Shown piece after piece: positions 30,797 to 50,687 of a stretch of DNA of 64,000 bases. The notes beneath the pieces are model-generated. The model was not told the origin of the DNA. It searched no databases and was given only the letters and a program-made list of their open reading frames with translations. Each line of letters starts with the position of its first letter. The first letter of the stretch is position 1. The position numbers and the translations under genes were made by a program. The stretch is from a virus (Duplodnaviria > Caudoviricetes), in the IMG/VR virus record IMGVR_UViG_3300031555_003590, positions 96,001 through 160,000 of that record; one strand, written 5' to 3'.

Positions 30797-30831
30797 AATA
30801 AAGAGAGGCCAATTAAGGCCTCTCTTTATTT
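30797..30831. terminator. Bidirectional terminator
   Basis: AATAAAGAGAGGCC...GGCCTCTCTTTATT. Confidence 0.8.
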
Positions 30832-31573: not shown

Positions 31574-31761
31574 TATTTATCACCTTCTTCATTAATTAAT
31601 TTTTCTATTGCTTCAGCTGATGGGATTTGATCATCGGTAGAATTTTCATCTATTGTATTTACAATTCTTCCATCTAACATATCATTTACTTTATTAAAAA
31701 ATGCTTCAGAAAATATTTTTATACCTTCATTATCTAAATATTTAATTTTTTCATCACTCAA
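31573..31761 (-). CDS. Small hypothetical protein
   Basis: STDDQIPSAEAI resembles motifs seen in tail-associated proteins; AAGGAG RBS. Confidence 0.5.
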   Translation of the reverse strand: MSDEKIKYLDNEGIKIFSEAFFNKVNDMLDGRIVNTIDENSTDDQIPSAEAIEKLINEEGDK

Positions 31762-31830
31762 TATAATCGCTCCTTTTATTAATAAAAAGATCGGGATGTA
31801 AAATCCCGATCTTTTTTATTTCTATTAATA

Positions 31831-32346: not shown

Positions 32347-32383
32347 AATTAATTTCCTCCTATAATATTATTCAAATTAATTG

Positions 32384-33391: not shown

Positions 33392-33458
33392 AATAATTTA
33401 CCTCCTAACAAGAATCATTGTGAATTAACACTCAAGTAGAGAATATATCATTTTATTA

Positions 33459-34016
33459 TTATCTATAATTTTCTTTTAAAATTATTTTACTATTAATAAA
33501 TCCTCCAAACATGTTAATTTTATTTGCATTATAAAACCTAGATTTGGTTATAATAATATAACCACAATTTGAAATAGTATCTGTATCATAAATATTAGGT
33601 TTTATAAATTCATTTTCATTATCACGTAAACGAATTCGATGATATTCTTTAATATCATCATAAAATAAATCATATTTATGTTTTATTTCTCCATGGAATC
33701 CTCTTATTGTATCATTTTCATAATATAACGGAATATCAGATGGTACATCAGATACAAGTATATTATTTTTTTCAGCATTAACAAGATACCATGAAATATT
33801 TTTATTAATGTCAATAACTTTTGTAATTGATATTACATCAGTCCATCCAAATAAATCAGTAATTTTAATATGTCCTTCATCAAAATATATACTTGTAACA
33901 TTTTTTACAGTTATTGATTTATGATAATATTTTTGATATAAATCATTTACAGTTGTATACCCAGGTTCACCTGTTAAATAATCTAAATATTGTATATGGG
34001 TATTTGGATGAATCAT
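33459..34016 (-). CDS. Stand-alone degenerate Hint (intein-like) domain protein
   Basis: MIHPNTHI (block A-like), TDLFGWTDV, GYIIITKSRFYNANKI (block F/G-like); catalytic Cys1 and terminal HN absent. Confidence 0.5.
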   Translation of the reverse strand: MIHPNTHIQYLDYLTGEPGYTTVNDLYQKYYHKSITVKNVTSIYFDEGHIKITDLFGWTDVISITKVIDINKNISWYLVNAEKNNILVSDVPSDIPLYYENDTIRGFHGEIKHKYDLFYDDIKEYHRIRLRDNENEFIKPNIYDTDTISNCGYIIITKSRFYNANKINMFGGFINSKIILKENYR

Positions 34017-34071
34017 TTTATTCTCCTTTCAAATAATATTTTTTATTAGGGGAGAATATTCTCCCCTAATA

Positions 34072-36207
34072 TCATTTTAATGTTTTGATGTGTCTACGTA
34101 ACACATCAATTGGATCATTACCATTAAGAGCGATTATTGGAATATTATTAGCTTTAGCCTTTTCTACTTTATTAGATGTAAAATCATCTGTAGGTATTAC
34201 TAAATATTTAGCTTTATTACTCCAACTGTCAGAAGCTTCCCAACCATTAGTAGATAATAATAATTCAACATCTGAATTAGGTCTGCATCCACTAAATATA
34301 ATTTTTCCATTAGATGTATTATTATTTCCAAATGATTGACTTAATGTTACTTCTTCCATAAGTTTTAATAATTCAATTCTGAATTTAGTATCCTTTAATT
34401 GATTTACTAACGCTTCAGCTTTTAAATCTCCAATACCAGGAACTCTAACTAATTTAGCCATTAATAAATCAAAGTTCTTTAGATTAATCATATCTACAAA
34501 CTCAGATAGTTTAATATGACTAAATATAGTTTGGAATGTTTTAATACTTAATCCTTCAATACCAACTGATCCAAAGAATTCATAATCTTTTAATCTACGT
34601 TTAGCTTCAATTTCAGCAATCATCTTTTTGGTTTTTAATTTACCAAATCCTTCGATATCTTGAATATCTAAACTCTTCTTTCTTAGTTTATATAAACTCC
34701 TAATACCTTTATCTAATAAACCTTCTTTCCATAATGCCTCTAGAGTATTATATCCAATATTTTGAATTCTAAGATTTTTACAATAATTCAAAATTTTACC
34801 AATAATTCTACTAGGACAATTTGGATTAATACATTGGACAATATTGGTATTTAAATTCAATTCTTCATTACATGTAGGACATTTAGTAGTAAATGGTATC
34901 TTTCTACCATTCTGTACTCTATAACAATTTTCATCAATTGTTACATATGGGATGATATCATATAATACTTTTACTTCATCACCATAAGATAGATCTAATT
35001 CATCAAATCTTTCTTTATTAGATAATGAAATATGATTTACTGTATTACCTTTTAAAATTACATCATTAACTACTAATACAGGTGTAATAATTCCAAACTC
35101 ACTTACATAGAACTCAACTCCCTTTACTTTAGTATATGCACTTTCTTCAGTAAATTTATATGCAACTTCAAAATTATTAATATCATTATCTCTACCTAAT
35201 GCTTTTTGAATCTTTGGATTTAGAATAGTAATAACAACGCCATCAGTTCTAAATCGTTTATGATTTCTAGTTACATATTTATTTTTAATAGAAAATTCTT
35301 TAATAATATCTCTATCATCTAAAGTACAAATTTGAGTTGGAAATTTTTCAATTAATTCTGGATGAATTTGTTCAATATCTTCTCCATCTCTAATAATTCT
35401 TAATGGTACTGGATATAAATAATCAACTTTGAAATCAGGTTCATTAGAATTCAATATTGAAGTAACTACTTGTCTGCTATTTTTATATGATTTATGTCGA
35501 TAAAGTTCATTAATATGATCTTTATCTTCTTCAGTAATCATTGCTTCAAATTTAATTCCAACACCTTTTTCTCTACCATAAATATCATTAAAGATATTCA
35601 TAATATGAGATACATCAGATGCTTTATTATTACGAGTATCTCCTCGTGTTAACCATAAAGGTTTTCCATCCGTATACTCCATAATAACACTTGAACCATC
35701 CATCTTTGGAGTTAACATAATTTTTTCTTTATTTAGATCAATTCTTTCACCAGTAGCTTGAAAATATTTATTTTCAGTAGATTTAATCCATTCATCTAAA
35801 TGTTTTCTACTTTTATTAGTTTTCTTTTCTCCTGGCTTTAAATAATATACTTTATCTAAAGTACCTCTAAGAGTACGATAGGTATGTTCTACTTTATTAG
35901 CAGAATTGATTTCTACTGATCCAGTTAATCTAGGAATACCCATATCAATTAACATTTCTTGTAAAGTATCATAATTGGAATCACTAATAGGAGAACCCAT
36001 TCCAGAAGTATATAAAATTTGTAATACTCCTACTATAGCTTGTAATTCAGCTAACTGATTATCTTTTAATGGATCTTTAGTAATATTATCTAAATGCACA
36101 TAATAATTTATTCGTTTCATTTTATCTTTTTGACAAACTTCATCATATGCATCTTTGATATTCATTCTATCAAATGTTAAATGATTTAACATTTTTTCAA
36201 ATGTCAT
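34072..36207 (-). CDS. ligA: NAD-dependent DNA ligase
   Basis: TPKMDG, LTRGD, RTDGVVI, EVAYKF, CPTC..CINPNC, HhH and BRCT-like end; start at ATG 36207 after GAGGTG. Confidence 0.93.
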   Translation of the reverse strand: MTFEKMLNHLTFDRMNIKDAYDEVCQKDKMKRINYYVHLDNITKDPLKDNQLAELQAIVGVLQILYTSGMGSPISDSNYDTLQEMLIDMGIPRLTGSVEINSANKVEHTYRTLRGTLDKVYYLKPGEKKTNKSRKHLDEWIKSTENKYFQATGERIDLNKEKIMLTPKMDGSSVIMEYTDGKPLWLTRGDTRNNKASDVSHIMNIFNDIYGREKGVGIKFEAMITEEDKDHINELYRHKSYKNSRQVVTSILNSNEPDFKVDYLYPVPLRIIRDGEDIEQIHPELIEKFPTQICTLDDRDIIKEFSIKNKYVTRNHKRFRTDGVVITILNPKIQKALGRDNDINNFEVAYKFTEESAYTKVKGVEFYVSEFGIITPVLVVNDVILKGNTVNHISLSNKERFDELDLSYGDEVKVLYDIIPYVTIDENCYRVQNGRKIPFTTKCPTCNEELNLNTNIVQCINPNCPSRIIGKILNYCKNLRIQNIGYNTLEALWKEGLLDKGIRSLYKLRKKSLDIQDIEGFGKLKTKKMIAEIEAKRRLKDYEFFGSVGIEGLSIKTFQTIFSHIKLSEFVDMINLKNFDLLMAKLVRVPGIGDLKAEALVNQLKDTKFRIELLKLMEEVTLSQSFGNNNTSNGKIIFSGCRPNSDVELLLSTNGWEASDSWSNKAKYLVIPTDDFTSNKVEKAKANNIPIIALNGNDPIDVLRRHIKTLK

Positions 36208-36276
36208 TAATATTTCACCTCTTTTTAAATAAATAATTATTAGGGTAGGTATAATACCTACCCTAATAATATACAC

Positions 36277-38625
36277 TTATACTATTTTAACTTTTACTAC
36301 TTTACTACTTATTACATTTTTCTTGACAACTTTCTCTGGTAAACTACTCATAGTGGATTCAGATAATTTTTCAATTTCAAGAATCTCACTAATTCCATCA
36401 TCAAAATAAATCATAATCTTATCAAATTTATTTACACCTATTACACTAACAAGTTTGTCACGATCATTTAATGATATTAGTCTAACCATAGAATCATGTT
36501 TAGAATCCCTAATTGGTAAATATTCTAAAGAATTTAGTCTAGTTTTAGCTTTAGCAGTGACATAAAGTAAATATTGATTCTCTTCTGGATTTATGGTATA
36601 ACATCCAATTATTTCATCATCAGGTTGTAATTTGAAACCATTGCCACCTTTTGCATTTGGAGAAGTAATTCTAATTACATTAGGATCGATTCTTTGACCA
36701 TATCCATCTTTAGTAAATACTAAAATATCTTTAGAAGATTTACTTCTAGTAATTAGACCTCTAACTAATTTATCATTCTTATCTAAAGCAATACAAGGTT
36801 TCTTAGATGGTCCCATATCGGAAATTCTAATTTTCTTCAACATACCATTCTTAGAAATTAAAGTACAACACAAATCTGAATCAATATCAACAGGAAGCAT
36901 TGCAACTATATTTCCATCTAATTTATGTTTCATAAATCTATTAATAGGTACTTCTGAATCAATAGGAATTTCTTTTACTTTAATATATGAATGATATCCA
37001 TTTTCATCAATAATTACAAATGAAGAATCATTATCTACTTTAACCGCAAATCCATTACTATCAATTGGAATCGGTTCTTCTTCAACATTAGTACACTCTT
37101 TACGAAGAATATTACCATCAGAAGATAATTGTAGAATACAAGCACCTTCTGCTTCAGAATGAACTGAAATTTTATATGGAATTACATTAGATTTACGAGG
37201 TGTACCAAATCGTTTAATACCATCTCTAAGTTCAGCAATAATCAATTTATCAATACCATTTTCTTCATCTAATGTTTTCTTAACTTCAGCTAATTCTTTT
37301 TCTAATTCTTCTTTACGTTTTAAGCATGCTTCATAAGAATCAATACTTAATTCATGCATTCTTAAATTAGATAATACTTTAGCTTGTAATGAATCCATTC
37401 TAATTTCACTATCATGATATTTAGCAATTAGATTCTTTTCAATCTCAGTTCTATTTCTACTAGTACGGAAAATTTTAATTGTTTCTTCAAGATTATTTTT
37501 ATTCATCAAGAAAATTTTAACATCATTTGTACGTTGTTCAGCAAGTAGAGTAGTTCTTTTATGAGATATAACTGTTCTCTTTTGTTCACGTCGATAATCA
37601 ATCCATGCTAATAGTAATTGTTTAATTGAATAATCAAAATTTTGATAATCATTTACTACAGTAATATTTACTGGATATGATTTTTCTAATCCTCCAACTT
37701 CTTTAATTAATTTCTTCATAAATTTGTATGGATTTACATCATCACGAATTACTAATCTTAAATCAACATTAGCACCAGTCATATCATTCATATTAACAAG
37801 TTCTGATAATCCGCCACGTTCTTTAATATCAGCAATGCGTTCTCTTATTACATTTACTGGAACTTGATATGGTAAGCTAGTAATAATAATTTGATTATTT
37901 TTATCATCGATTTCATAAGTACATCTCATAGAATATACTCCATTACCTCTATCACATAACTTACCAAAATCATTTTCAATAATATCGGCACCAGTAGGAC
38001 TATCAGGAATTAATATAATATTAGCATTTGGATCTACCATTAACATGATAACAGCTTCAACTACTTCTCTAAAATTATAGCATGGAATATTTGAACTGGC
38101 GCCATATCCTATACCAATACATCCATTAAGTAGTACATTAGGATATTTAGCAGGTAGATATAAAGGTTCCATAGTCTCTTCATCAAATGCCAATGTCATA
38201 TCTACAACTGAATCATTCCAGTCTTCAAAGAAACATGCTTGTGCATAATCAGATAATCTGGCTTTAATATATCTATCAGCACCTGCAGGATCTCCAGCAG
38301 GTCCACCAAAATTTCCACTTCCTTCAATTAAAGGTATTGAATTATTCCACCATTGAGTTACTCCAACTAATGCATCATAAACTGAACTTGGACCATGTGG
38401 ATGTACTCTACCAATAACTTCACCATCTATAGTTGCAACTTTTCTAAAAGTCTTTCCTTTATCTTTTAAATACATGATGTATAAAGTTCTACGTTGAACA
38501 GGTTTAAGACCATCTATAAAATCTGGTGTAATACGAGCTAAATTTACATTTGCTCCTCTTATGCAATCATATGATTTTGCTAATTCAGCTATATTTCTAT
38601 CTATAAATTTTTCATTAAATATCAT
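36277..38625 (-). CDS. gyrA: Type IIA topoisomerase subunit A (GyrA/ParC)
   Basis: DGLKPVQRR, HPHG, GNFG, GADRY catalytic Tyr, C-terminal pinwheel-like repeats. Confidence 0.92.
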   Translation of the reverse strand: MIFNEKFIDRNIAELAKSYDCIRGANVNLARITPDFIDGLKPVQRRTLYIMYLKDKGKTFRKVATIDGEVIGRVHPHGPSSVYDALVGVTQWWNNSIPLIEGSGNFGGPAGDPAGADRYIKARLSDYAQACFFEDWNDSVVDMTLAFDEETMEPLYLPAKYPNVLLNGCIGIGYGASSNIPCYNFREVVEAVIMLMVDPNANIILIPDSPTGADIIENDFGKLCDRGNGVYSMRCTYEIDDKNNQIIITSLPYQVPVNVIRERIADIKERGGLSELVNMNDMTGANVDLRLVIRDDVNPYKFMKKLIKEVGGLEKSYPVNITVVNDYQNFDYSIKQLLLAWIDYRREQKRTVISHKRTTLLAEQRTNDVKIFLMNKNNLEETIKIFRTSRNRTEIEKNLIAKYHDSEIRMDSLQAKVLSNLRMHELSIDSYEACLKRKEELEKELAEVKKTLDEENGIDKLIIAELRDGIKRFGTPRKSNVIPYKISVHSEAEGACILQLSSDGNILRKECTNVEEEPIPIDSNGFAVKVDNDSSFVIIDENGYHSYIKVKEIPIDSEVPINRFMKHKLDGNIVAMLPVDIDSDLCCTLISKNGMLKKIRISDMGPSKKPCIALDKNDKLVRGLITRSKSSKDILVFTKDGYGQRIDPNVIRITSPNAKGGNGFKLQPDDEIIGCYTINPEENQYLLYVTAKAKTRLNSLEYLPIRDSKHDSMVRLISLNDRDKLVSVIGVNKFDKIMIYFDDGISEILEIEKLSESTMSSLPEKVVKKNVISSKVVKVKIV

Positions 38626-38686
38626 TAATTATCTTCCTCCTTAATTTAAATAATTTTTATTACCTTTTGTTAATTACTTCATAATG

Positions 38687-38726
38687 ATAATATATAAATT
38701 CAATTTATGATTAAATTATATATTAT
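38687..38726. promoter_or_regulatory. Divergent pair of putative early promoters (gyrA-ligA / 38760)
   Basis: ATAATATATA at 38687-38696 and TATATATTAT at 38717-38726. Confidence 0.55.
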
Positions 38727-38759
38727 TTTGCAAATATAATAAAAGGAGATGTTTATAAT

Positions 38760-39527
38760 ATGAGATCGACTGATCATAATATCAATAATCCATTAAAGAC
38801 AATAGATATTGATACGTTTAGAACTATTAATAGTTGGAATTCATTTAAATTTATAAGTATTACTCAAGAAGAATATGATCTAATGCAAATTCATGAACCT
38901 TATACATTATATCATATTAAAGATAGTAAAGATAATAGATATTACGTTGGAGATATGTTAATTGAAAATGAAATTAAAAAAGTTAAATACCTATTATCAA
39001 TCGATGATAATAAACTTTATACTATTTATATGAATCAAGTTGATACTTATAATAATTCAGAACTAATTCCAATTTGTTCATATGAAGATCCTCAAGTAGC
39101 AATAAATAAACTTTCTGAATTCAATAGAGTAGGATCTCATTTTGATAAACCGTTAATGATTTATAATATTTTGATCAATTATATTGAAAAAATTATTTCT
39201 ACTCATGAATTTATTATTGGTATACTAGATATATTTGGATATAAAGAAGATCCTAGATTGCAAGATGTAATTCAATTTATAGTTGGCCATAATGAACATA
39301 AATGGCAAAAAGAATTTTTACCATTTCTATCAAATGAAATTAGTAGAATGAGAGATTTATATCCTGATTCATTATATCCTTACTATTCAAATTTGTATGA
39401 TCTTATAGTTAAATATAATTTCTTTACTGATAAGAAATATAATGAAACTGATGTAAATTTAAGTAAAGAAATTGATGAAATAATTAAAATAATGAATGTA
39501 AATAAATTTAAATTTTCAGAATATTAG
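38760..39527 (+). CDS. Hypothetical protein
   Basis: 255 aa; AAGGAG RBS, promoter motif at 38717. Confidence 0.55.
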   Translation: MRSTDHNINNPLKTIDIDTFRTINSWNSFKFISITQEEYDLMQIHEPYTLYHIKDSKDNRYYVGDMLIENEIKKVKYLLSIDDNKLYTIYMNQVDTYNNSELIPICSYEDPQVAINKLSEFNRVGSHFDKPLMIYNILINYIEKIISTHEFIIGILDIFGYKEDPRLQDVIQFIVGHNEHKWQKEFLPFLSNEISRMRDLYPDSLYPYYSNLYDLIVKYNFFTDKKYNETDVNLSKEIDEIIKIMNVNKFKFSEY

Positions 39528-39627
39528 TATAAATTATAAAAATAATTATATATTATATTAATAGGAATGAAGAGAAGGTTTAAACCTTCTCTTCATTCAA
39601 TTTATTAATTTAAAAGGAGAATGTAAA

Positions 39628-40236
39628 ATGAGTAAATTTAATAAAAATGACAAGGTTAAAATTATTAAAGGTGCTAATGTTGGAATGGAGGCAACGATTT
39701 TTAAAGTAGAGAATTCTGATGATTTTCATACTAATGAAGATGTATATCGAATTAAATGTGAAGCATATCCGGATGGTATTATAATGACTGAAAGTAGTCT
39801 TGTTTTATTAAGTGAGAGTATGAATGATTCATATTCAGTATTTACTGAAGCTAAAAAAGATAAGAAAGGTGGGGATGAAGGTTCAGCAAAATCTTATGTA
39901 ACAGATATAATGCTTCATTTATTTAAATTAAAATTTTCAACTGATAAAGATTCTCATAAACATTGGAGAGATGAAATTGAAGAGTTTAGAATAAAATATA
40001 AAGAAGCTATTTATAATAAAAATATTGGTAAAAATAATACTAATATTGTCAATGCTATAAATAGAGAATTTGATACTAAATTATTCAAAAATTCCAAGGA
40101 TCAATATATAAAACTTGCTAATAAACCTGATGGAAAACATTTAATTCCTGGCTTAAAGCATTTACCTAAAGAATGTCCTTGGACACTAGAAGAGGTAATT
40201 TTTGGTAATATTAATAAAATTCTTGAATTAATTTAA
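39628..40236 (+). CDS. KOW-like N-terminus plus DUF29-like domain
   Basis: FNKNDKVKIIKGANVG; IMLHLFKLKF..HWRDEIEEFR..LPKECPWTLEEV. Confidence 0.55.
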   Translation: MSKFNKNDKVKIIKGANVGMEATIFKVENSDDFHTNEDVYRIKCEAYPDGIIMTESSLVLLSESMNDSYSVFTEAKKDKKGGDEGSAKSYVTDIMLHLFKLKFSTDKDSHKHWRDEIEEFRIKYKEAIYNKNIGKNNTNIVNAINREFDTKLFKNSKDQYIKLANKPDGKHLIPGLKHLPKECPWTLEEVIFGNINKILELI

Positions 40237-40254
40237 ATTAATTAAGGAGCAATT

Positions 40255-41217
40255 ATGAATATTTCAGATATAATTAAAGAAGCTTTTATGTCTAAATCAA
40301 TGATTGATTATTTATGTAATAATATTGAAAACATTTCAAATGATCAATTAGTTGATATTATTAATGCATCAACATCTATTTCTCTTCAACGTAAATTAGA
40401 ATTACTTGAATGGCTTTCTCAGTTTAAAGATATTGATAATAATATTATATTAAGTATCAATGCTTCGTTGGATGCATTATATGATAAAAATACAAATATT
40501 ATCTTTATACTTGATACATATGTTTGGAATGATGAATTTAAAGATTCTATACTAGATAGCTCTATTCCATTTCTAAATTACGAAAAAGCTATTGAATATA
40601 TTAAAACGGATTGTAATGATGAAATGTATAAAGATATTCGATTTTGGTATATTCTTGAAAAATGGGAGCGGGATGACAATGGAAATTTAATTGATACATG
40701 GTCATATGTATTAATAAATGATAAAGTCATTTTCGCGTATAAACCACAAGATTCTCAATATATAAATATAGATCCTAATAAAATTGGTCTAAATCTATCA
40801 ATTCCATTTAATAGTGGTGATATCATTGAAGTATCAAGTATGCCATTTAATTCTAAGAAATATGCGTTAATAATTGATATTGGAGATAATGTTGATTGTT
40901 GTTCTGTTCAACATGTATATGTTGAAGATAATTTATTAAATATAAATGCTTTGAAACATGGCCATATATTTAATGAAGAATTATATGCATCATCTCCGTT
41001 ATTTAGTATTGAACGATATAATGGTGAATTAAATAAACATGATAAAGTTTTATTAATTATTAAAGATTATATTATCAATCATCCTGAAATAGATACATGT
41101 TCCGATTTATGGCAAGCTTTACATGATATCTCTAATAATATGATTGCATGTATTGATATTACAGAAGAACTTATCGATGAATATGTAAGAGAAGTTTTAT
41201 TGAAGAAGGATAAATGA
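40255..41217 (+). CDS. Hypothetical protein
   Basis: 320 aa, directly upstream of rtcB. Confidence 0.55.
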   Translation: MNISDIIKEAFMSKSMIDYLCNNIENISNDQLVDIINASTSISLQRKLELLEWLSQFKDIDNNIILSINASLDALYDKNTNIIFILDTYVWNDEFKDSILDSSIPFLNYEKAIEYIKTDCNDEMYKDIRFWYILEKWERDDNGNLIDTWSYVLINDKVIFAYKPQDSQYINIDPNKIGLNLSIPFNSGDIIEVSSMPFNSKKYALIIDIGDNVDCCSVQHVYVEDNLLNINALKHGHIFNEELYASSPLFSIERYNGELNKHDKVLLIIKDYIINHPEIDTCSDLWQALHDISNNMIACIDITEELIDEYVREVLLKKDK

Positions 41218-41285
41218 AGAATGTATGATGAGGTGGAGAATTCTCCACCTGATCAATTTATTTATTTTAAAAGGAGAATTATAAA

Positions 41286-42410
41286 ATGATTACATTAGAT
41301 TGCAAATATAATCAAATTAAAGTATTTGCTGATGAAATTGAATTAGGTGCTGAAAATCAACTTAGAGCTATGTGTGAGCAACCTTTTATGAAAGGTAGTA
41401 AAATTAGAATTATGCCTGATGTGCATCCTGGTAAAGGATCTGTTGTTGGAACTACTATGACAATTAATGATTATGTAATTCCATATGTTACTGGGTCAGA
41501 TTCAAGTTGTGGATTACTAACAGTACAATTGAAGGAGAAAAGAATTAATCTTCCTGAACTTGATAGTTTCATTCGTCAAAATATTCCTCATGGTAGAGAT
41601 GTTCGAGATCGCCCTCATAGAAGTCATGGTAGAATTGATTTATCTGAATTAAAATGTTATAAGAAAATTGATACCAGAAGAGCTAAAGAAAGTTTAGGAA
41701 CATTAGGAGGGGGAAATCATTTTATTGAAATTGATAAAGATGATGAAGAAAATTTATATTTAGTAATTCATACTGGAAGTAGAAATATGGGTTTAAGAGT
41801 TTCGGATTTTTATCAAAATAAAGCATATAATTCTATTGGAGGTAAGAAACAAATTGAAATTCCATATGAATTAGCTCCACTAACTGGTCAAAATATGCAA
41901 GATTATTTAGCTGATATGGAATTTATGAATAGATTTGCTACTCTAAATAGAAGAATTATCAAAGAAGTAATTCTAGATGGTATGAAACTTCATGAAGTAG
42001 ATTCATTTGAAACTATTCATAACTATATCGATGTTGAAAATATGATTCTACGTAAAGGTGCAGTGTCAGCTAAAGCTGGTGAGAGATTAATTATTCCAAT
42101 GAATATGCACGATGGTAGTTTAATTTGTACTGGTCTTGGTAATGAAGATTGGAATTATTCTGCTCCTCATGGTGCTGGTCGTTTATATAGTAGAAAGGAA
42201 TCTGAAAATCATTTTACTCTATCAGAATTTAAGAAAGAAATGGAAGGAATCTTTACAACTTCAGTTACACAAGATACTTTAGATGAGTCTCCAATGGTAT
42301 ATAAACCAATGGAAAGTATTCTCAGAAATATTGATGAAACTGTAAAAGTTGAAAAGATTATTCGACCAATTTACAATTTTAAAGCTAGTGAACATGTTAA
42401 ACGTAAATAG
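41286..42410 (+). CDS. rtcB: RtcB family RNA ligase
   Basis: MPDVHPGKG, DSSCG, GTLGGGNHFIE, IHTGSR, HNY, RKGA, HGAGR, DESPMVYK. Confidence 0.95.
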   Translation: MITLDCKYNQIKVFADEIELGAENQLRAMCEQPFMKGSKIRIMPDVHPGKGSVVGTTMTINDYVIPYVTGSDSSCGLLTVQLKEKRINLPELDSFIRQNIPHGRDVRDRPHRSHGRIDLSELKCYKKIDTRRAKESLGTLGGGNHFIEIDKDDEENLYLVIHTGSRNMGLRVSDFYQNKAYNSIGGKKQIEIPYELAPLTGQNMQDYLADMEFMNRFATLNRRIIKEVILDGMKLHEVDSFETIHNYIDVENMILRKGAVSAKAGERLIIPMNMHDGSLICTGLGNEDWNYSAPHGAGRLYSRKESENHFTLSEFKKEMEGIFTTSVTQDTLDESPMVYKPMESILRNIDETVKVEKIIRPIYNFKASEHVKRK

Positions 42411-42421
42411 GAGAAAGGAAA

Positions 42422-43009
42422 ATGATCTATCAAATCAGTTCCGGCCAAGGACCTGCCGAGTGCGAGCTTGGCGTGGCTAAGTTCCTTGGCTATCTGCAAA
42501 ATCACTATGAGATTACCGTGCTGGACTACTCAAGCGGATATCATCCGGATACATACCGCTCGGTGCGCTTCTCTACACCGGACGATCTGAGCGGCTATAT
42601 CGGTTCTGTCCAATGGGTCTGGCAAAGCAGCTACCGTCCCGGGCACAAGCGCAAAAACTGGTTTCTGGATTTCAGCGAGTGTTCATCCGTTATTCCGGAA
42701 ACCTTTGACGAAAGGCAGATCACCTTTGAAACCTTTCGCTCCGGCGGCAAAGGCGGCCAGAACGTCAACAAGGTCGAAACCGGAGTACGCGCAATCTATG
42801 CCTCGACTGGGCTGAGTTCTGTCTGCACCGAGGAACGCAGTCAATTTCAAAACAAGCAGCGTGCCATCGAAAAGCTGAGAGCCGCGATCAAGCTGGAAAA
42901 TGAGCAGCGCAAGGCACAGAACACAAATGATACATGGAAACGCCATACACAAATTGTACGTGGTGAAGCTAATAATAAATTTTATGGTATTGATTTTAAA
43001 ATACAATAA
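42422..43009 (+). CDS. prfH: Peptide chain release factor H
   Basis: QISSGQGPAECE, HKRKNWF, RSGGKGGQNVNK, EERSQFQNK; directly after rtcB. Confidence 0.92.
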   Translation: MIYQISSGQGPAECELGVAKFLGYLQNHYEITVLDYSSGYHPDTYRSVRFSTPDDLSGYIGSVQWVWQSSYRPGHKRKNWFLDFSECSSVIPETFDERQITFETFRSGGKGGQNVNKVETGVRAIYASTGLSSVCTEERSQFQNKQRAIEKLRAAIKLENEQRKAQNTNDTWKRHTQIVRGEANNKFYGIDFKIQ

Positions 43010-43151
43010 TAAATTTATTATTATCATTAACTAAATAATACGATCTTTCTTCCAATAATAGTATAGTATCAAAAAATAAATATATATTATTATAGTAGGA
43101 ATTAAAAGATAAATATTTAATATTTCTTATAGAAAGGAGGAAGGATCAATT

Positions 43152-43532
43152 ATGCTTATCGAATTCCTAAATCAAGTTACAGTTGATAAAGTTCCATTGG
43201 TTGAAAATATTAGATTAAATATTCAACCATTGTCTCATCAACTGCGATTGAAAGCAATCTATCTAAATGGTGAAAATAAAACACCAGTAGATTTTGTTGT
43301 ATTCAATTGGACACCTAAGCTAGATAAGCTTCAATTGGCCATTTTGATATATGGCAAAGAATTAACCACAGGCACAGAATTTCATTGTAAGTTATCATAT
43401 GATATATTCCGAAAACATATGAAGCTTAGTGGAAGGATTGCTGGCAAAGATGTTAAAATAACAATTGCTAGCATGAAAGAGTTTCTAGAAATTCCTAGAT
43501 ATATCACAAATCAATTTTATGGAGGTATGTAA
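43152..43532 (+). CDS. Hypothetical early protein
   Basis: Promoter motif at 43081; AAGGAGG RBS. Confidence 0.55.
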   Translation: MLIEFLNQVTVDKVPLVENIRLNIQPLSHQLRLKAIYLNGENKTPVDFVVFNWTPKLDKLQLAILIYGKELTTGTEFHCKLSYDIFRKHMKLSGRIAGKDVKITIASMKEFLEIPRYITNQFYGGM

Positions 43533-43534
43533 AA

Positions 43535-44230
43535 ATGTCTAAGTTCACCAAAGAAAGAATCGCAGAGATCGATACTATGATTAGTAAAACCATTCCCCAG
43601 GCTATGACTAAAGGTTGCACTCTGGAAGAGTACCATGAACATCGAGTTACCTTGACTCTTACTGTGATTCAGGCACTCTTTGGCGCGGATTATATTAAGC
43701 CTAAGAAAGAAGGGAAGCCCCTCATTGCAAAATTAAAGCATAAGATTGCTGATCGTGAAGACGTTAATACCATCACTCGTATGATTGATGAATTCGTTGG
43801 TACAGTTGAAGTTCCTTATCTGAATAGCATTTCAGGAAATACTAATGCTGATGATGATATGGATATTCCTGCTACCACAACTCCGGTTGTTTCTAGACTT
43901 CCCAAACTTGATAAGATCAATAGTAAGAGCCTGAGTGAATATCTCTTTGGACCTTCTGGAGTTAGCAAGATTCTTATCAGTGGTCTTGATGTAATTGAAC
44001 TTGCAGCTGTTGCTGAAAAAGTCAAAAAGATCAATACTCGCAACAATATGATTCTTATTGGTTCTGCTGTACTTATTGGTGTTGGTATCGGTGTTGGCAT
44101 CAACATGTACAGAAAGTCTAAGAATGATGATATCGATGTCGATAACATTGATGTTGATGATGTCGAAGTTGACGTTGATGACGTTGAAGTTGATGTTGAT
44201 GATGTACCTGTAGTAAATCTTGATGAATAA
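43535..44230 (+). CDS. Membrane-anchored protein with acidic repeat tail
   Basis: Hydrophobic ILIGSAVLIGVGIGVGI then DIDVDNIDVDDVEVDVDDVEVDVDD. Confidence 0.6.
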   Translation: MSKFTKERIAEIDTMISKTIPQAMTKGCTLEEYHEHRVTLTLTVIQALFGADYIKPKKEGKPLIAKLKHKIADREDVNTITRMIDEFVGTVEVPYLNSISGNTNADDDMDIPATTTPVVSRLPKLDKINSKSLSEYLFGPSGVSKILISGLDVIELAAVAEKVKKINTRNNMILIGSAVLIGVGIGVGINMYRKSKNDDIDVDNIDVDDVEVDVDDVEVDVDDVPVVNLDE

Positions 44231-44233
44231 TAT

Positions 44234-44270
44234 AAAGAAGGGAATCCATAATGGATTCCCTTTCTTTTTT
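44234..44270 (+). terminator. Intrinsic terminator
   Basis: AAGGGAATCCAT...ATGGATTCCCTT plus T run. Confidence 0.8.
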
Positions 44271-44334
44271 ATATGTTTATTAAACTAGATTATAAATTTC
44301 TATATATGTTTCAATAAAGGTGGTGAATAATTAG

Positions 44335-44793
44335 ATGGAAAATTATCTAAAACTAGGTATTGGATATGATACTACATTTGAATTAAATGAATTTAATGAA
44401 CCTAGAATTAGAAGTGAAATTGAATTAATTAAAGATGTAATTCTTTTTATATTATTTGCTAAACCTGGACAATATCCATCACTTCCACATATTGGATTAG
44501 ATTTACAAGGTATGTTATATTCATTTTATGATGAAATAAATGAAAATGATTTAAAATTTAAAATTAAAGAGCAATGTGAAGCAATGGGAGTATTTTTTAG
44601 TGATGGTACAGTACAAATTAAAAAAATTAAATATAGAAGTCAGCCATCATTATTAATTTCTATTTCAGGAACAGAATCATATCCAGATGGATATATGAAA
44701 GATCATATTGGTGTATCAAATGAATATTTAATTGGTATTACATACGATGAACTGAATAATATGATCTATAATATTAATAGTGGAGGAGGTTAA
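44335..44793 (+). CDS. Baseplate wedge protein, T4 gp25-like
   Basis: IKDVILFILFAKPGQYPSLPHIGLDL matches the gp25/GpW pattern. Confidence 0.6.
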   Translation: MENYLKLGIGYDTTFELNEFNEPRIRSEIELIKDVILFILFAKPGQYPSLPHIGLDLQGMLYSFYDEINENDLKFKIKEQCEAMGVFFSDGTVQIKKIKYRSQPSLLISISGTESYPDGYMKDHIGVSNEYLIGITYDELNNMIYNINSGGG

Positions 44794-44796
44794 TAA

Positions 44797-45522
44797 ATGG
44801 CTGTAGCTAATAGAGAATATATTGAAAAATTAATTTATGATGTTTATGATCAGCTAGATCCTTCTGGTACTAATACAAATAAAATGAAATCATTATTTCA
44901 ACCAATGTCAGATAAGGAATTTGAAAAATATATGAAAGAATTTTTATCTAATGATGATGAAAATTTTATTTTGGATATTGTTGAATTTGAGAATGATTTA
45001 AAGATGAAAAATTGTGAAAATGCTGCAAAGGTATTAGATATTCCATTAATGGAATATGTATATATGCCACATCTTACAATGGATAAATCTAGAGTAATAG
45101 TATCAAAGGAAAAATGTTTAGTATCATATCTTAATGTAAAACGAACACAACAATTCCTTCATAAAAAGAATGGATTAACTGTATCAAATGAAAAAATATC
45201 TGCTACTACTGGTCAAGTTGTTAATAAAGATAAGAATGCTAGAGATAGTGATATTGAAGCATCTATGTTAGTATCTTTAGGAGCAGATAAAATTTTACAA
45301 GAATTACATGGTCCAAGAGCAGATGACCCAGTTATGAGAAGAGAAATGGATCAATCTATTGCAACTAAAGGATATGTAATGCTAGATGAATTAACTAATC
45401 TATCTACTAATAAAGTAACTTTAAATACAATTAATGCATATTTATTATCAATGCATTTAGATTCTGATTTAGTTACTGATACATTAATTCTTCCTAAGAC
45501 AAGTGCAGAACTATTTGAATAA
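44797..45522 (+). CDS. rpoB: Virion RNAP beta C-terminal subunit
   Basis: TGQVVNKDKNARDSDIEASMLVSLGADKILQELHGPRADD aligns with the RpoB C-terminal [31 protein letters not shown]. Virion assignment is from the structural-gene context. Confidence 0.7.
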   Translation: MAVANREYIEKLIYDVYDQLDPSGTNTNKMKSLFQPMSDKEFEKYMKEFLSNDDENFILDIVEFENDLKMKNCENAAKVLDIPLMEYVYMPHLTMDKSRVIVSKEKCLVSYLNVKRTQQFLHKKNGLTVSNEKISATTGQVVNKDKNARDSDIEASMLVSLGADKILQELHGPRADDPVMRREMDQSIATKGYVMLDELTNLSTNKVTLNTINAYLLSMHLDSDLVTDTLILPKTSAELFE

Positions 45523-45558
45523 TATTATAATTTATTAATAAAAAGGAGATGTTAAATA

Positions 45559-46065
45559 ATGTTATCTATTCAAGTTTTAGGTTCAGGTTTAATTCCCCGT
45601 GGGTATGGTATTGCACCACGTAAAGAATTTTTTAAAGCTGATTTAAATTTAATTACTACTATTCTTAGTACTAACGGTTTAAAGGTTAATATGAAAACTC
45701 CTGATGGTAAGATCATTCCTCTAAACAATAGTAATGTGAAGAAAATGTGGGATAAGTATCGTTCTGATAATATTCAATCTGTTAAGAAGAATGTAGAAAC
45801 TCCTAAATCTCCTGTTGCTCCTGTAGTTGAACCTCCTAAAGCACCTGAAGTTACAAATGTTCCTCCAGTAGTAACTCCTCCAGTAGATCCTGTTAAACCT
45901 AATGAATCTAAGGTAGAGGAACCTAAGGTTGAAGTAGTTAAACAAGAGGAGAAGAAAGTTGAAGAAAAGAAGGAAGAGAAAGTAGAAACTCCAGCTTCTG
46001 CTCCTATTAAACCTGTTATTAATGATAATAAAGGAAATAATAATCAAAATAATAATAAAAAATAA
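45559..46065 (+). CDS. Hypothetical protein with Pro/Glu/Lys-rich tail
   Basis: 168 aa; AAGGAG RBS. Confidence 0.55.
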   Translation: MLSIQVLGSGLIPRGYGIAPRKEFFKADLNLITTILSTNGLKVNMKTPDGKIIPLNNSNVKKMWDKYRSDNIQSVKKNVETPKSPVAPVVEPPKAPEVTNVPPVVTPPVDPVKPNESKVEEPKVEVVKQEEKKVEEKKEEKVETPASAPIKPVINDNKGNNNQNNNKK

Positions 46066-46184
46066 TATAGGGAATATAGGAGTGGGATTAATCCCACTCC
46101 TATATTTTTTAATGATATATTTTTTACTAGGACATTAACAAAAATGTATCAAAAGTTATATTTTATATAGGAGGAATGTGATTT

Positions 46185-48320
46185 ATGAATAGTGATGTTT
46201 TATATTCATTACCAACAATACGTACTGTAGCTGATTGCGAACGAGAATTTCCTGATGTAATTATTATTTCTCGTTATAATACGTATGAAAAATTTGATGA
46301 ATTATATTATAAGGTATACTATGCAATTTGTGCTTGTATTGAAATTCCTGATTGTGTTAGTTATAAAATTAAATTTAAATTCTATCCAGAAGATGATTGT
46401 ATTTATGAATTATCAATGCCAAAATTCTTATTAAATCTCAACTCATGGAGACCATTAATTGAACTTAATAGCATTGCTCATTATTATACTAAACATATTG
46501 AGATTCTAGATGAGAGTTTTATTGTTGGTATTATGATGAGTGATAAAGTTAGAATTGGATTAGAATCAAGAGTAGTTCAGATTTTAAATGATTATGGTAT
46601 TCCGTTTGAAAGAGTTTCTGAATTGTTAAAGACTGTAATTGAAAGATATCAAGAAGCATCAATTGAATTTGCAATTACTGATAAACATTCAATTATGACA
46701 TTTGAAAGTGTATTTTTAAATGACTATAGAAATTCTACTAAACTCCAAGAACTTAATAATTTAGAAATTTCTCAAAATTTACAGACTGCTGATGTAGAAG
46801 AGTTATTAAGACAAAAGACAAATGAATTGATTACAGAATTAGGTAGAACAAAAAATCCGATTTGGTATATATCTAAAGCAGGAAACCATATTAAACCTAA
46901 ACAAGTTCAAGAGTTATTTATTTCATATGGACAGATTCCTGATGTATCCGGTAATGTTATTCCATATACTATGAAAGGAAATGGGTTTGCTACTGGTTAT
47001 GTAGATCCTACTACTTATTATATTGCTGCAACCGGTGCTCGTCTATCTGCTATTATGAATAAAGCACATATGGGTGAAGCTGGTTATTTATCTAGAAACT
47101 TAATTCTTGCTAGTAGAACTATGACATTATCTAAAACTGTATTTGATTGTGGTACAAAACATTTATTACCTTTATTTGTAAAAGATAGTACATTTCTTCA
47201 TAGATTGGAAAATAAATGGTATACAGAACACCTAGGTGGATCTTTAAAGTTAATTCACTATGAAGACTGTAAACATTTAATTGGAAAAACTATTTATGTT
47301 AGATCCCTAATTACTTGTGCTGGTGGAGATGAAGTATGTCATGTTTGTTATGGAAAGGATAGTCATTTAGTTATGAATATGCCAGGTATGGCTATTTTCA
47401 ATACTGAAGTATATTCTGAACCTGTATCACAAAATATTCTATCTACTAAACATTTATTATTTACTGCAGCAAATAAAATTGGATTTAGTAATTCATTTGA
47501 TAAGTATTTTAAATTTAATGCTGGAGATGTTTATTTAAAAGAATTAGATGAATGGGATACTTCTATTCCTACTAATGGATTATCTATTCGAATTGAAGAA
47601 GGAAATGTAATTCCGGTTAATAAAAATGATATGATTGATTATAATACATTTGGCAATCATATTGAATCTCCATTCTTTGTATATAATGAAAATACTAAAG
47701 AATATGATAAAATTGAAATCATTAATTATGAATCAATGTTTATTGATTCTGAATCAATGAAATCATTTAAACTTATTACTGATAAAAAAGACAATAAAAC
47801 TTATTATGAAATTCCACTTGATACATTATCTACTGAATTAGAAGGACGATTAATGTCTATTGATATTAAGAATAATGGTTTAACTGATAATTTATATATG
47901 ATTATGAATCTTCTTAATAAAGATGCTAGCAAGTATGATAATTATAGTCAACTAGCTCAAGATTTCTTTGAAACTTTAATTAATGCTGGTATACGTTGTA
48001 GACATGTACAAGCTGAAGTTATTCTTAACAGATTAATTAGAGATGCTAATGATATTTATAAACGTCCCGATTTTACTAAATTTGAAAATCCTGAATATAA
48101 AATTTTAACATTGAATCAAGCATTACTTAATACTAAAGCTCCTACTATTGGTATGTCTTATCAAGAATTAAAGAGACAGATTCTTAGTGATGCATTATAT
48201 GAAGAGAAAGACGGATCTTCTTATCTTGATAGCATGTATGCTAATGAAATTAATACCAATAGACTAAAAGAGCTTATTAAAACTAAAAGAAAAGAGAGGT
48301 TAAATTATGGAAAACAATAA
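46185..48320 (+). CDS. rpoC: RNAP beta' C-terminal subunit (probably non-virion)
   Basis: MGEAGYLSRNL (bridge helix), DCGT, RSLITC..VCHVCYG, SEPVSQNILSTKH (trigger loop). Confidence 0.88.
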   Translation: MNSDVLYSLPTIRTVADCEREFPDVIIISRYNTYEKFDELYYKVYYAICACIEIPDCVSYKIKFKFYPEDDCIYELSMPKFLLNLNSWRPLIELNSIAHYYTKHIEILDESFIVGIMMSDKVRIGLESRVVQILNDYGIPFERVSELLKTVIERYQEASIEFAITDKHSIMTFESVFLNDYRNSTKLQELNNLEISQNLQTADVEELLRQKTNELITELGRTKNPIWYISKAGNHIKPKQVQELFISYGQIPDVSGNVIPYTMKGNGFATGYVDPTTYYIAATGARLSAIMNKAHMGEAGYLSRNLILASRTMTLSKTVFDCGTKHLLPLFVKDSTFLHRLENKWYTEHLGGSLKLIHYEDCKHLIGKTIYVRSLITCAGGDEVCHVCYGKDSHLVMNMPGMAIFNTEVYSEPVSQNILSTKHLLFTAANKIGFSNSFDKYFKFNAGDVYLKELDEWDTSIPTNGLSIRIEEGNVIPVNKNDMIDYNTFGNHIESPFFVYNENTKEYDKIEIINYESMFIDSESMKSFKLITDKKDNKTYYEIPLDTLSTELEGRLMSIDIKNNGLTDNLYMIMNLLNKDASKYDNYSQLAQDFFETLINAGIRCRHVQAEVILNRLIRDANDIYKRPDFTKFENPEYKILTLNQALLNTKAPTIGMSYQELKRQILSDALYEEKDGSSYLDSMYANEINTNRLKELIKTKRKERLNYGKQ

Positions 48321-48819
48321 TCCTTTTAATGATACTATTGATTCATTAAAAAGAACTGCTAAACAAGTAGATGAGTATACTCGTAAAAAAGATGCAGAAG
48401 AAAATGAAACTCCTATAAATAATGAAGAGAAAAATACAAATCCTAGTTTTGTATTATATGATGCAATTGCAACTAGTTCTATATCTTTACTAGAAGATAG
48501 TGAAGTAGTTAAAACTTTTAAGAAAATTGCTGAAAATGTTGGAGAAGATATTTCTAAAAGTCTAGTAGAATTGATGGCTATTGTAATGACCCAATCAGCT
48601 TATCATGCAATTATTTTCTATGATAAACTATTGAAAAAAGAGTTGGATATTCAGTTTAATCATATTGCAGAAAATATGAATATTCTTAAAGCTGATACTG
48701 ATGGGCATCATGAAGTATTAAAAGTATTTAAGAAACAACTTGGAGATATTCAAAATAAAATTAAATTAGAAAATTTTCAAACTGAAAATAATATTAAAGC
48801 AGATCCCAATAATAACTAA
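48307..48819 (+). CDS. Hypothetical protein
   Basis: 170 aa; overlaps the end of beta'C. Confidence 0.55.
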   Translation: MENNNPFNDTIDSLKRTAKQVDEYTRKKDAEENETPINNEEKNTNPSFVLYDAIATSSISLLEDSEVVKTFKKIAENVGEDISKSLVELMAIVMTQSAYHAIIFYDKLLKKELDIQFNHIAENMNILKADTDGHHEVLKVFKKQLGDIQNKIKLENFQTENNIKADPNNN

Positions 48820-48929
48820 AGTTATTATAGTGAGGGGCTATACATGCCCCTCACTATATTTTTTATTTATATATTATACTTATATAGGATATAGCGATTA
48901 ATTTTAAAGAAAGAGATGAGGTTTATATT

Positions 48930-50687
48930 ATGAAACAAATATCATTTATTAAAAGTTTAATGCAATTTAATAAGAGAGTATTATTTCAAGGAAGTATAAA
49001 AAAGAATCATAAATATACATTTGCAGAATTAAAAAATAAATTATTCTTTAATAAAGTATTTATTAGTAATATGCAAGAAATGTTTCAGAAATATGATGTA
49101 AAAAGTATTATTCCTGAATATACTGAAGAACTTAGTCAATATATTTCTAATATAAATGATATCATCATTGCAATGTATGATGAAAAGAATTTTATTAAAT
49201 TTAGTAGAGAAAATAGTTTTGAAAGAAGATTATCTATTGAAGGAACTATTTCAAATCATGTAATTACTAAAATATTTGATAATATTAATTGTATAGATTT
49301 TAAATTTATTAATAACTATATATATTATCTGAGTTTATTTGCTAATGGACAAGTGGCAATTTCTTATGTTGATATGAGATCTGCAATATATAAAGAAGTT
49401 ATTAGTTGCCAAATGGAATATCATAAATTACATTGGAAAACAGATGATTGTATTAGAGATTATATTAGAGATACTAGTCGTGCAATTGATACAATTGCAA
49501 TTAGAGTTACTACTAGAATCAAAGATAATTCAGTATCTAAAGTAGAATATAGTGGATCTACTGAAGTAATGAGGAACTTAGTTCAAATATTTAGACCTGA
49601 TACATTAATAGTTTCAAATCCATTTATTTATGTAGATGATATTGAAATTATATTAGATAAATATATTCCTGTTATTCCAATTACAAAACCAAAATTTGAT
49701 GTATTTAAATTAGAAGATTTATTTGATAAAGATATTCTATTAGAATACCCAAATGATTCTTTTGATGAATATTTACAATTCTTAGATCTTGCATCAAAAA
49801 GTAAAAATGTAAAATCTATATATGTAACATTATACCGAATTGGAAAAGATCCAGCAATATTTTATATACTAAGAGATGCTGTACAAAGAGGAATTAAAGT
49901 ATATGCAAATATTGAATTATGTGCATCAGGTGAATCAATAAATATGATGTGGATGGATGAAATGCGTAAGGCTGGTATAATAATTACAACATATGCAGCT
50001 GGCAAATTAAAGGTTCATTGTAAATTAACATTAGTTGAATTTATTAATGGAACTAGATTAGCTCAGATTGGTACTGGAAATTATCATACTAAAACAGCTA
50101 CCCAATATACAGATTTATCATTAATTACCGGAGATGAAAATATTTGTAAACAAGTAAAGAAAATATTCAATCTATTTAGTGGTAAAAATAATCCTGATGA
50201 TCTTTATTTTGATAATTCTCTATTAGTAACTAGATATAATGCTAGAGAAGAATTACTTCGTTTAATAGATGAAGAGGGATCTAAGGGTAAAAATGGTCAT
50301 ATTGTAATTAAATGTAATTCATTAGATGATACAGAGTTTAATTTACATTTAGATCATGCTGCTAACAATGGATGTAGAATTGATTTGATTGTTAGAGGAG
50401 TATGTACATGGGTACCAAATTATGATCATGGCAATGTAATGATAAAATCTATTGTATGGGATAAACTTGAACATTCTAGAGTATTTTGTTTTGGAAATAA
50501 TAATCCTATTATTTATATTGGATCATTAGATCTAGTAACTAAGAAAATTGATAAACGAATTGAATCATTGGTATTAATTAAAGATATTGATGTAATGAGA
50601 CAATTATGTTCATATCTTAATAGGTATATAGTTAATATTAAAGATTCTTGGTTACAAACTAATACTGGAATGTATATAAAGGAGTGA
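48930..50687 (+). CDS. ppk1: Polyphosphate kinase 1-like protein
   Basis: FNKRVL, TLYR, LKVHCKL (phospho-His), IGTGNYH..YTDLSL, KCNSL, LIVRGVC, LEHSRVF, YIGSLD. Confidence 0.85.
   Translation: MKQISFIKSLMQFNKRVLFQGSIKKNHKYTFAELKNKLFFNKVFISNMQEMFQKYDVKSIIPEYTEELSQYISNINDIIIAMYDEKNFIKFSRENSFERRLSIEGTISNHVITKIFDNINCIDFKFINNYIYYLSLFANGQVAISYVDMRSAIYKEVISCQMEYHKLHWKTDDCIRDYIRDTSRAIDTIAIRVTTRIKDNSVSKVEYSGSTEVMRNLVQIFRPDTLIVSNPFIYVDDIEIILDKYIPVIPITKPKFDVFKLEDLFDKDILLEYPNDSFDEYLQFLDLASKSKNVKSIYVTLYRIGKDPAIFYILRDAVQRGIKVYANIELCASGESINMMWMDEMRKAGIIITTYAAGKLKVHCKLTLVEFINGTRLAQIGTGNYHTKTATQYTDLSLITGDENICKQVKKIFNLFSGKNNPDDLYFDNSLLVTRYNAREELLRLIDEEGSKGKNGHIVIKCNSLDDTEFNLHLDHAANNGCRIDLIVRGVCTWVPNYDHGNVMIKSIVWDKLEHSRVFCFGNNNPIIYIGSLDLVTKKIDKRIESLVLIKDIDVMRQLCSYLNRYIVNIKDSWLQTNTGMYIKE

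Follow-up and report, generated by a model that had tools for sequence, protein, structure and literature searches.

A virus whose genome was assembled from metagenomic DNA carries, next to each other on one strand, genes for an RNA ligase of the RtcB family and for the release factor PrfH. We consider it somewhat better than an even chance that the two genes form a phage-borne ribosome rescue-and-repair pair that is probably transcribed early, from a promoter like those used by the virion RNA polymerase of phage AR9. The pair lies within a 64,000-nucleotide stretch of DNA (here, the window), which is bases 96001 to 160000 of a single 292,119-bp virus record in IMG/VR. In bacteria, PrfH and RtcB2 of the type found in Escherichia coli ATCC 25922 rescue and repair ribosomes that have been cut in the decoding center (PMC9304027; PMC9223846). 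The system is a known bacterial one, encountered here in a virus; the added interest lies in its recurrence in giant phages and in a prfH gene that is a clean compositional mosaic. The pair consists of the following features, with positions counted from the first base of the window.

41286 to 42410, plus strand: rtcB, 374 amino acids, predicted 3'-phosphate/5'-hydroxyl RNA ligase (PF01139, E = 2e-58; phrog_1075, E = 2e-127)
42411 to 42421, plus strand: 11-nt spacer with the ribosome-binding site of prfH, GAGAAAGGAAA; the GGAG overlaps the rtcB TAG and lies 8 nt before the ATG at 42422
42422 to 43009, plus strand: prfH, 195 amino acids
42422 to 42919, plus strand: codons 1 to 166 of prfH, a body rich in guanine plus cytosine (GC) and of foreign origin, with a GC content at third codon positions (GC3) of 63%; it holds the GGQ motif and the R72/H75/R77/K78/N79 pocket
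42920 to 43009, plus strand: codons 167 to 195 and the stop codon of prfH, an AT-rich tail with a GC3 of 10%; it is homologous to PrfH and carries R174, H175, and R180

The original prediction made from this DNA was that rtcB and prfH are adjacent and intact, that the GGQ motif of PrfH is retained, and that an 11-nt spacer with a ribosome-binding site separates the genes. Each of these points was borne out. Both open reading frames (ORFs) are open and intact, with the TAG stop codon of rtcB at 42408 to 42410, and GGQ was found at residues 111 to 113 of PrfH in the alignment as well as in the structure match.

The sequence occurs in animal faecal metagenome runs. The 292-kb record is rated 100% complete by CheckV and has an overall GC content of 28%. 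Genes near the pair encode an NAD-dependent DNA ligase, a topoisomerase II, a virion structural protein, and split beta subunits of a multisubunit RNA polymerase (msRNAP), whose matches to phrog_3233 and phrog_3015 at 44797 to 48320 adjoin the rtcB-prfH region. Split beta and beta' polymerase genes and an early promoter consensus, which together mark AR9-like jumbo phages, were both found. By this gene content, including the split msRNAP beta subunits, the record is an AR9-like jumbo phage, complete, uncultured, and from animal faeces. Megablast of window positions 30000 to 50000 against INPHARED gave no match.

Functional residues and relatives of RtcB and PrfH

When the phage RtcB is aligned with E. 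coli RtcB1 and RtcB2, its residues D72, C75, N144, H145, H162, H245, H295, R299, and R303 are invariant. Their RtcB1 equivalents, D75, C78, N167, H168, H185, H281, H337, R341, and R345, are established as the metal- and GTP-binding residues and the histidine nucleophile. The nucleophile H295 aligns with H337 of RtcB1 and H294 of RtcB2. The phage RtcB is accordingly predicted to be catalytically complete.

Pfam identified only the RF-1 domain of PrfH (PF00472, E = 3e-22, residues 95 to 182). A search of the PDB aligned nearly the whole protein, residues 2 to 193, with entries 9mor (E = 5e-34) and 7sa4 chain 8 (E = 2e-30), and structures of the release factors RF1 and RF2 matched over residues 95 to 190 only, which is the GGQ domain. 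The protein thus has the two domains of the PrfH family (TIGR03072/IPR017509), for ribosome recognition and GGQ, and is free of domain 1 and the stop-codon recognition of RF1/RF2; its score against the NCBIfam model release_prfH (TIGR03072), 164.1 bits, is slightly below the cut-off of 166.65. The GGQ residues G111, G112, and Q113 are invariant in the alignment.

The residues with which E. coli PrfH reads the 3'-phosphate of cleaved A1493, h18/S12, and C1914 have been listed by Tian et al. (PMC9304027), and we mapped that list onto the phage protein through a HMMER alignment with 7sa4 chain 8. Of 12 contact residues examined, 11 are kept. Given as the E. coli residue followed by its phage counterpart, these are R52 (R46), S53 (S47), R83 (R72), H86 (H75), R88 (R77), K89 (K78), N90 (N79), R181 (R174), H184 (H175), and R189 (R180), together with the G-P loop at G10-P11. 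The sole change is from H85 to glycine, and H85 makes one stacking contact with C1054.

The best PDB match, 9mor, is the PrfH of Capnocytophaga gingivalis (CgPrfH), which represents the PrfH-CT type of 225 to 250 amino acids with a basic C-terminal tail. That tail allows CgPrfH to rescue intact non-stop ribosomes as well, whereas short-type PrfH is reported to be active only on ribosomes damaged in the decoding center (bioRxiv 10.1101/2025.01.09.632186). The phage protein, at 195 amino acids, does not have the tail of CgPrfH, and its alignment with 9mor stops at residue 206 of the 231 in that chain. The phage PrfH stops at the same point as its E. coli counterpart and so has no basic tail; it falls in the short subfamily and would be expected to act on damaged ribosomes only.

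The likeness to the E. coli RtcB2-PrfH operon extends to the order of the genes, ligase and then release factor, to a short-type PrfH with GGQ and the A1493-phosphate pocket, and to the full set of RtcB catalytic residues, and the mechanism is presumed by analogy to be the same. There are also clear differences. The phage pair is virus encoded and lies behind a phage early-promoter motif; its genes are separated by an 11-nt gap and prfH has its own ribosome-binding site, in contrast to the 4-nt overlap in E. coli; its two genes differ in compositional age; and its RtcB belongs to a clade of Firmicutes and phage sequences. The phage RtcB is only 29% identical to E. coli RtcB2 and 30% identical to RtcB1. 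It also fell short of the RtcB2-type NCBIfam models, with 101.9 bits against TIGR03073 (cut-off 271.8) and 134.8 bits against NF007153 (cut-off 407). In the tree, E. coli RtcB2 is in a distant clade with sequences from Proteobacteria and Desulfobacterota. The RtcB2 cluster as Tian et al. (2022) define it is coupled to PrfH and mends cleaved 30S subunits but not cleaved tRNAs; the phage ligase shares with it the position immediately 5' of prfH but not sequence membership. The original prediction had suggested a tree against RtcB1 and RtcB2 as a check; the phage protein keeps the RtcB catalytic set but is not an RtcB2 ortholog.

Adjacent rtcB and prfH genes are not confined to this phage. A search of IMG/VR yielded at least seven other contigs with the two genes side by side (L002 to L008). 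Among them, a complete 288-kb phage (G004, with pair L008) and a 166-kb contig (G003, with pair L003) encode an msRNAP beta subunit 27% identical to that of the window. The genes flanking the pair in the window had no homologs beside rtcB-prfH in the other viral contigs. Five viral pairs were placed in the trees (L002, L003, L004, L006, and L008), and they fell into at least three separate lineages in both the RtcB tree and the PrfH tree, which argues for repeated independent capture by phages. In cultured phages stand-alone RtcB is common, with matches in 121 INPHARED records. In contrast, full-length PrfH was found in no complete cultured phage of INPHARED; tblastn with PrfH reached at least 80% query cover only in five short unannotated fragments of 4.8 to 6.6 kb. 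PHROGs has no PrfH-specific family, and no paper in the library searched describes an rtcB-prfH pair in a phage, in agreement with the original prediction, to which no characterization of the pair there was known.

The closest relatives of the pair as a whole are in gut Clostridia (L127, L038, and L130), where PrfH is 72 to 82% identical to that of the phage and is also 195 amino acids long, and where the RtcB of L127 is 73% identical. Unlike the phage pair, these have surroundings typical of bacteria or mobile elements, which include HipA, serpins, dynamin-like GTPases, or Mor, and their GC content is 42 to 45%. In the bacterial relatives rtcB and prfH overlap by 4 nt, with no spacer. Both proteins have hundreds of relatives at 70 to 84% identity in metagenomes; the named ones are from Anaerotruncus colihominis and Oscillospiraceae for RtcB and from "Clostridia bacterium" for PrfH.

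In the RtcB tree the phage protein is in a six-member subclade with support of 100/100, which nests in a clade (99/98) that also holds PrfH-paired RtcBs such as that of L127. The sequences nearest to it, at 79 to 81% identity, come from mobile elements of gut Clostridia and stand alone. A third separate clade is made up of the RtcBs linked to PrfH in Bacteroidota; in L051, L053, L054, L056, L058, and L059, prfH is paired with a long RtcB (461 to 497 amino acids) in a clade of its own, apart from both E. coli RtcB2 and the Firmicutes/phage sequences. PrfH-linked RtcBs thus occur in at least three deep clades, and linkage does not define one clade. The PrfH-linked ligases appear from these trees to be polyphyletic or very deeply split.

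In L043 (3469 to 9500) and L157 (3678 to 8100), which carry the closest bacterial RtcBs, a conserved mobile-element cassette consists of a Mu-type transposase, RtcB, a 129-amino-acid protein, a DUF932 protein, and a YqaJ exonuclease, with toxin-antitoxin genes nearby. The ORFs of 129 to 131 amino acids that follow stand-alone bacterial RtcBs were considered as candidate PrfHs and rejected, as they are not PrfH-like. The closest PrfH, in L155, has a regulator of the Mor family after it. Temperate Mu-like elements of gut Clostridia may thus carry RNA-repair genes as cargo.

A separate observation concerns a 118.5-kb contig present at a depth of about 21 to 25x in three of four faecal runs, and as a 40-kb contig in the fourth. 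It shares with the window only the rtcB stretches 42005 to 42031 and 42150 to 42184, and its flanks are AT-rich. These short shared stretches, seen in Logan contigs, indicate that those animals also harbor another large phage, more abundant than this one, whose RtcB has diverged.

Transcription context of the pair

The genes belong to a run on the plus strand, the other features of which are as follows.

39543 to 39566, plus strand: predicted AR9-type early (virion RNA polymerase) promoter motif, AATTATATATTAT, with a purine start 6 to 7 nt later
39565 to 39598, plus strand: hairpin where the transcript is predicted to begin, with a 15-bp stem that includes 6 G-C pairs
39628 to 40236, plus strand: first ORF of the run, 202 amino acids, with a KOW-like N terminus and a DUF29-like C terminus (Pfam DUF29, E = 7e-7)
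40255 to 41217, plus strand: ORF of 320 amino acids with no recognizable family (Atlas scores below 0.9)
41232 to 41249, no strand assigned: perfect 18-nt palindrome, GGTGGAGAATTCTCCACC, between the 320-amino-acid ORF and rtcB
43152 to 43532 and 43535 to 44230, plus strand: two more ORFs, of 126 and 231 amino acids, with no function assigned by family search
44237 to 44263, plus strand: terminator-like hairpin (12 pairs) with a T-run after it, where the transcription unit probably ends

The AR9 early promoter consensus, AAATATATATTAT-N6-G, was defined experimentally (PMC5312081), and AATTATATATTAT at 39543 to 39555 differs from it by one base. Across the 292-kb genome the 11-mer core of the motif has 26 copies. 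Large ORFs contain none of 23 of these, and most of the 23 sit 30 to 320 nt 5' of an ORF on the same strand. A scan for sigma-70 promoters found 49 sites compared with 43.5 ± 6.7 in shuffled sequence, which is the level expected by chance. Early expression from the AR9-type motif is probable and can reasonably be proposed. Further copies of AATTATATATTAT in the window are at 38713 to 38725, 60348 to 60360, and 62441 to 62453, and there are about 20 more across the genome.

The pair was originally predicted to end a run of genes behind an early promoter motif at 39547. The motif is real and near the AR9 consensus, but the pair is in the middle of the run: a 142-nt AT-rich gap separates prfH from the next ORF, and the first terminator-like hairpin comes only after the two further ORFs. 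These ORFs keep the same order in the independent contigs L036 and L037. The 231-amino-acid product has a C-terminal hydrophobic segment and then an acidic repeat (DVDDVEVDVDDVEV...); its gene has a GC content raised to 38% and no family match.

Of the two ORFs that precede rtcB, the 320-amino-acid one matched nothing in Pfam or PHROG, and for the 202-amino-acid one the Atlas structure rows are leads only and give no usable function. The palindrome, which contains an EcoRI site, was not flagged by the terminator scan because its T-run begins 8 nt past the stem; it may act as an attenuator or mark a place of processing or protein binding.

Mosaic composition and origin of prfH

The two genes of the pair differ sharply in base composition. 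The GC3 of rtcB is 12%, similar to that of the neighboring genes, and with its fully phage-like codon usage rtcB is an old resident of the genome. The GC3 of prfH, 55%, is the highest among the 190 ORFs of at least 150 amino acids in the genome (mean, 13.6%; standard deviation, 6.6%). This excess is confined to the body of the gene, in which 104 of 166 codons end in G or C, compared with 3 of 29 in the tail (Fisher P = 1e-7). At the 5' side, the composition switches in the spacer and the first prfH codons. Most of prfH was imported or overwritten later than rtcB, from a GC-richer pool of gut Clostridia or their mobile elements. In the simplest history, a GC-rich homolog would have overwritten the greater part of a prfH that had resided longer in the genome and had been ameliorated; alternatively, prfH may have been imported whole and then changed locally. 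Derivation of the AT-rich tail from a PrfH subclade other than that of the body was considered and is unsupported, as the tail is likewise closest to the P0003/P0004 type.

The trees also hint at separate histories. The phage PrfH is sister (84/90) to the PrfHs of L038 and L130, and the partner RtcB of these nearest PrfHs comes from another subclade and is only 52% identical to the phage RtcB. An approximately unbiased (AU) test against grouping the phage PrfH with the L127 type gave a borderline P value of 0.048, for a group that was named after the tree had been seen. The discordance between the RtcB and PrfH trees is suggestive only, and composition is the stronger evidence that the two genes have separate histories.

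A close DNA donor for prfH was not found; the best DNA identity was 70 to 73%, with synonymous sites near saturation. PrfH was present in 10 of 399 Clostridia species genomes searched, in none of them at more than 51% identity, and the donor lineage is therefore absent from these 399 genomes. In a scan of genome contigs for PrfH, RF1/RF2 sequences filled the results through their generic GGQ pattern, and nothing closer than 51% came up.

The same abrupt switch from AT-rich to GC-rich sequence was observed in two tail-fiber-like ORFs about 88 to 91 kb before the start of the window (G000:C1:4610-6220 and 7874-9409, both on the minus strand). Their GC3 is about 0 to 5% over most of their length and then 50 to 85%, either over the last 180 codons or in two patches inside the gene, a pattern that suggests exchange of domains with the gene pool of a phage or host of about 50% GC. 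The mosaics fit a phage that recombines with DNA of such a host gene pool.

Proposed ribosome repair and its alternatives

In the mechanism that we favor, PrfH would move into the A site of those host ribosomes in which the 16S ribosomal RNA (rRNA) had been cut between A1493 and G1494, recognize the 3'-phosphorylated A1493, and free the nascent peptide through its GGQ motif. Once the subunits had separated, RtcB would reseal the break with GTP and Mn2+ through a His295-GMP intermediate. The benefit to the phage would be that host translation keeps running through the long infection of a jumbo phage when a ribotoxin strikes, whether the ribotoxin came from a host abortive-infection system or from competing bacteria, for example as colicin E3-like or contact-dependent toxins. 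One RtcB gene and one gene with an RF-1 domain are all that a whole-genome search found, and RtcA and an Rnl2-type ligase were looked for in the genome and not found. A search of the genome for the colicin E3 domain (PF09000) gave no match, and its control likewise matched nowhere.

Phage T4 provides a precedent. Its Pnk and Rnl1 repair tRNA-Lys that has been cleaved by the host suicide nuclease PrrC, so that in T4 too a phage mends an RNA of host translation cut by a host suicide nuclease. Unlike the RtcB-PrfH pair, the T4 system employs a 5'-kinase/3'-phosphatase and an ATP-dependent ligase, its substrate is tRNA, and it has no ribosome-rescue step. To our knowledge, RNA repair as phage counter-defense is textbook material, exemplified by T4 and PrrC, for tRNA only, and RtcB-PrfH is the only system known to reverse damage to the decoding center. 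The original prediction had cast the pair as a rescue-and-repair module that serves as a counter-defense. That reading is borne out in part: a genuine pair in a phage, with catalytic and damage-recognition residues kept, was found, and action against immune ribonucleases is what such a pair might do.

Several observations weigh against repair of rRNA by this pair. The phage RtcB lies outside the clade of E. coli RtcB2, for which rRNA-only specificity was established. The three members of its six-member subclade whose context was examined (L043 from Anaerotruncus, L046, and P0126 on L157) are not accompanied by prfH; the genes around them encode Mu-type transposase, DUF932, YqaJ, and toxin-antitoxin proteins. 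Among known anti-phage systems, none was found that cuts specifically at A1493/G1494, and the anti-phage RNase RAZR cuts rRNA, tRNA, and mRNA unspecifically. Finally, the un-ameliorated codon usage of prfH could mark it as a recent passenger that selection has yet to test.

The main rival is that RtcB mostly mends tRNA, or RNA in general, as is assumed for the stand-alone RtcBs of Herelleviridae and other phages. It would then counter anticodon nucleases, PrfH would be a later add-on that only clears stalled ribosomes, and the sealing of rRNA would not be central to the pair. We regard this as unlikely, although not by a wide measure. Given a ligase outside the RtcB2 clade with stand-alone nearest kin, the substrate could be tRNA. 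The phage RtcB is 44% identical to the RtcBs that stand alone in cultured phages (those of Herelleviridae, including Bacillus phage 000TH008; Bacteroides phage BS-TP1; the "tRNA splicing ligase" family of PHROG 1075), which are in the same broad clade and none of which adjoins a PrfH; it is only 37 to 39% identical to the PrfH-linked RtcBs of other jumbo phages. The difference in compositional age between rtcB and prfH and the presence of tRNA genes in the phage point the same way. However, a short-type PrfH that is specific for damaged ribosomes, as reported, would be useless without decoding-center damage, the clade of this RtcB includes PrfH-paired members such as that of L127, and the closeness of the two genes, 11 nt apart with a new ribosome-binding site, suggests that they are expressed together.

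A smaller possibility, which we judge improbable, is that prfH is a recent passenger with no adaptive role, gained through the recombination that swapped GC-rich segments into the tail-fiber-like genes. This would account for a GC3 of 0.55 in a genome with a mean of 0.136 and standard deviation of 0.066, for synonymous sites that have not drifted toward phage usage, and for the same mosaic in two other genes. It is harder to reconcile with an intact frame in which functional residues are kept, or with the location of prfH exactly 3' of an RNA ligase of the right family and behind a phage-type ribosome-binding site. Moreover, the homology of the AT-rich tail to PrfH indicates an older resident prfH that was overwritten rather than a random insertion, and other jumbo phages keep the pair with a fully phage-like composition (L004 and L008, GC 27%).

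It is very improbable that RtcB serves the processing of the phage's own RNA (tRNA halves or endonuclease-cut transcripts) with PrfH incidental: RtcB is the tRNA-splicing ligase of archaea and eukaryotes, but group I introns join their exons themselves, nothing in the window ties rtcB to the tRNA region about 90 kb away, and the pairing with PrfH recurs across other phages. Scarcely credible is an assembly chimera of phage and bacterium, which might be suggested by the sharp breaks in composition that bound a 500-bp segment of a genome assembled from a metagenome; it was rejected because independent JGI, ENA, and Logan assemblies span the junctions. Across both prfH junctions, over 2.2 to 2.8 kb, contigs of two further JGI samples match at 100% identity, an ENA contig has an identical PrfH protein and the same gene order, and Logan contigs from four faecal runs bridge 42149 to 42490 and 42535 to 43200 with zero differences. 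The junctions are also in frame, and the protein can be aligned with PrfH from end to end. The same DNA across the junctions in independent assemblies means that the horizontal transfer is real. The concern, raised with the original prediction, that prfH might be a chimeric host insert is thus right in that the gene is compositionally foreign but wrong in that several independent assemblies show it physically joined to the rest of the phage genome.

A wider history can be put forward, tentatively and as a possibility that falls short of likely: jumbo phages would repeatedly have captured RtcB-PrfH as an early-expressed countermeasure, and this phage would have refreshed its prfH by recombination with an allele from the host pool. 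This prfH offers a clean natural example of a phage gene overwritten by a homolog from a compositionally very different pool, and the recurrent AATTATATATTAT motif could serve to map the early regulon of an uncultured phage. The pairings found here imply that PrfH operates alongside RtcBs of several deep clades. A virus that carries repair of the decoding center would imply that attacks on this site in the ribosomes of infected cells are frequent enough for repair to be favored by selection. Such repeated attack would predict an undescribed class of rRNA-cutting immunity, or of toxin pressure, in gut communities.

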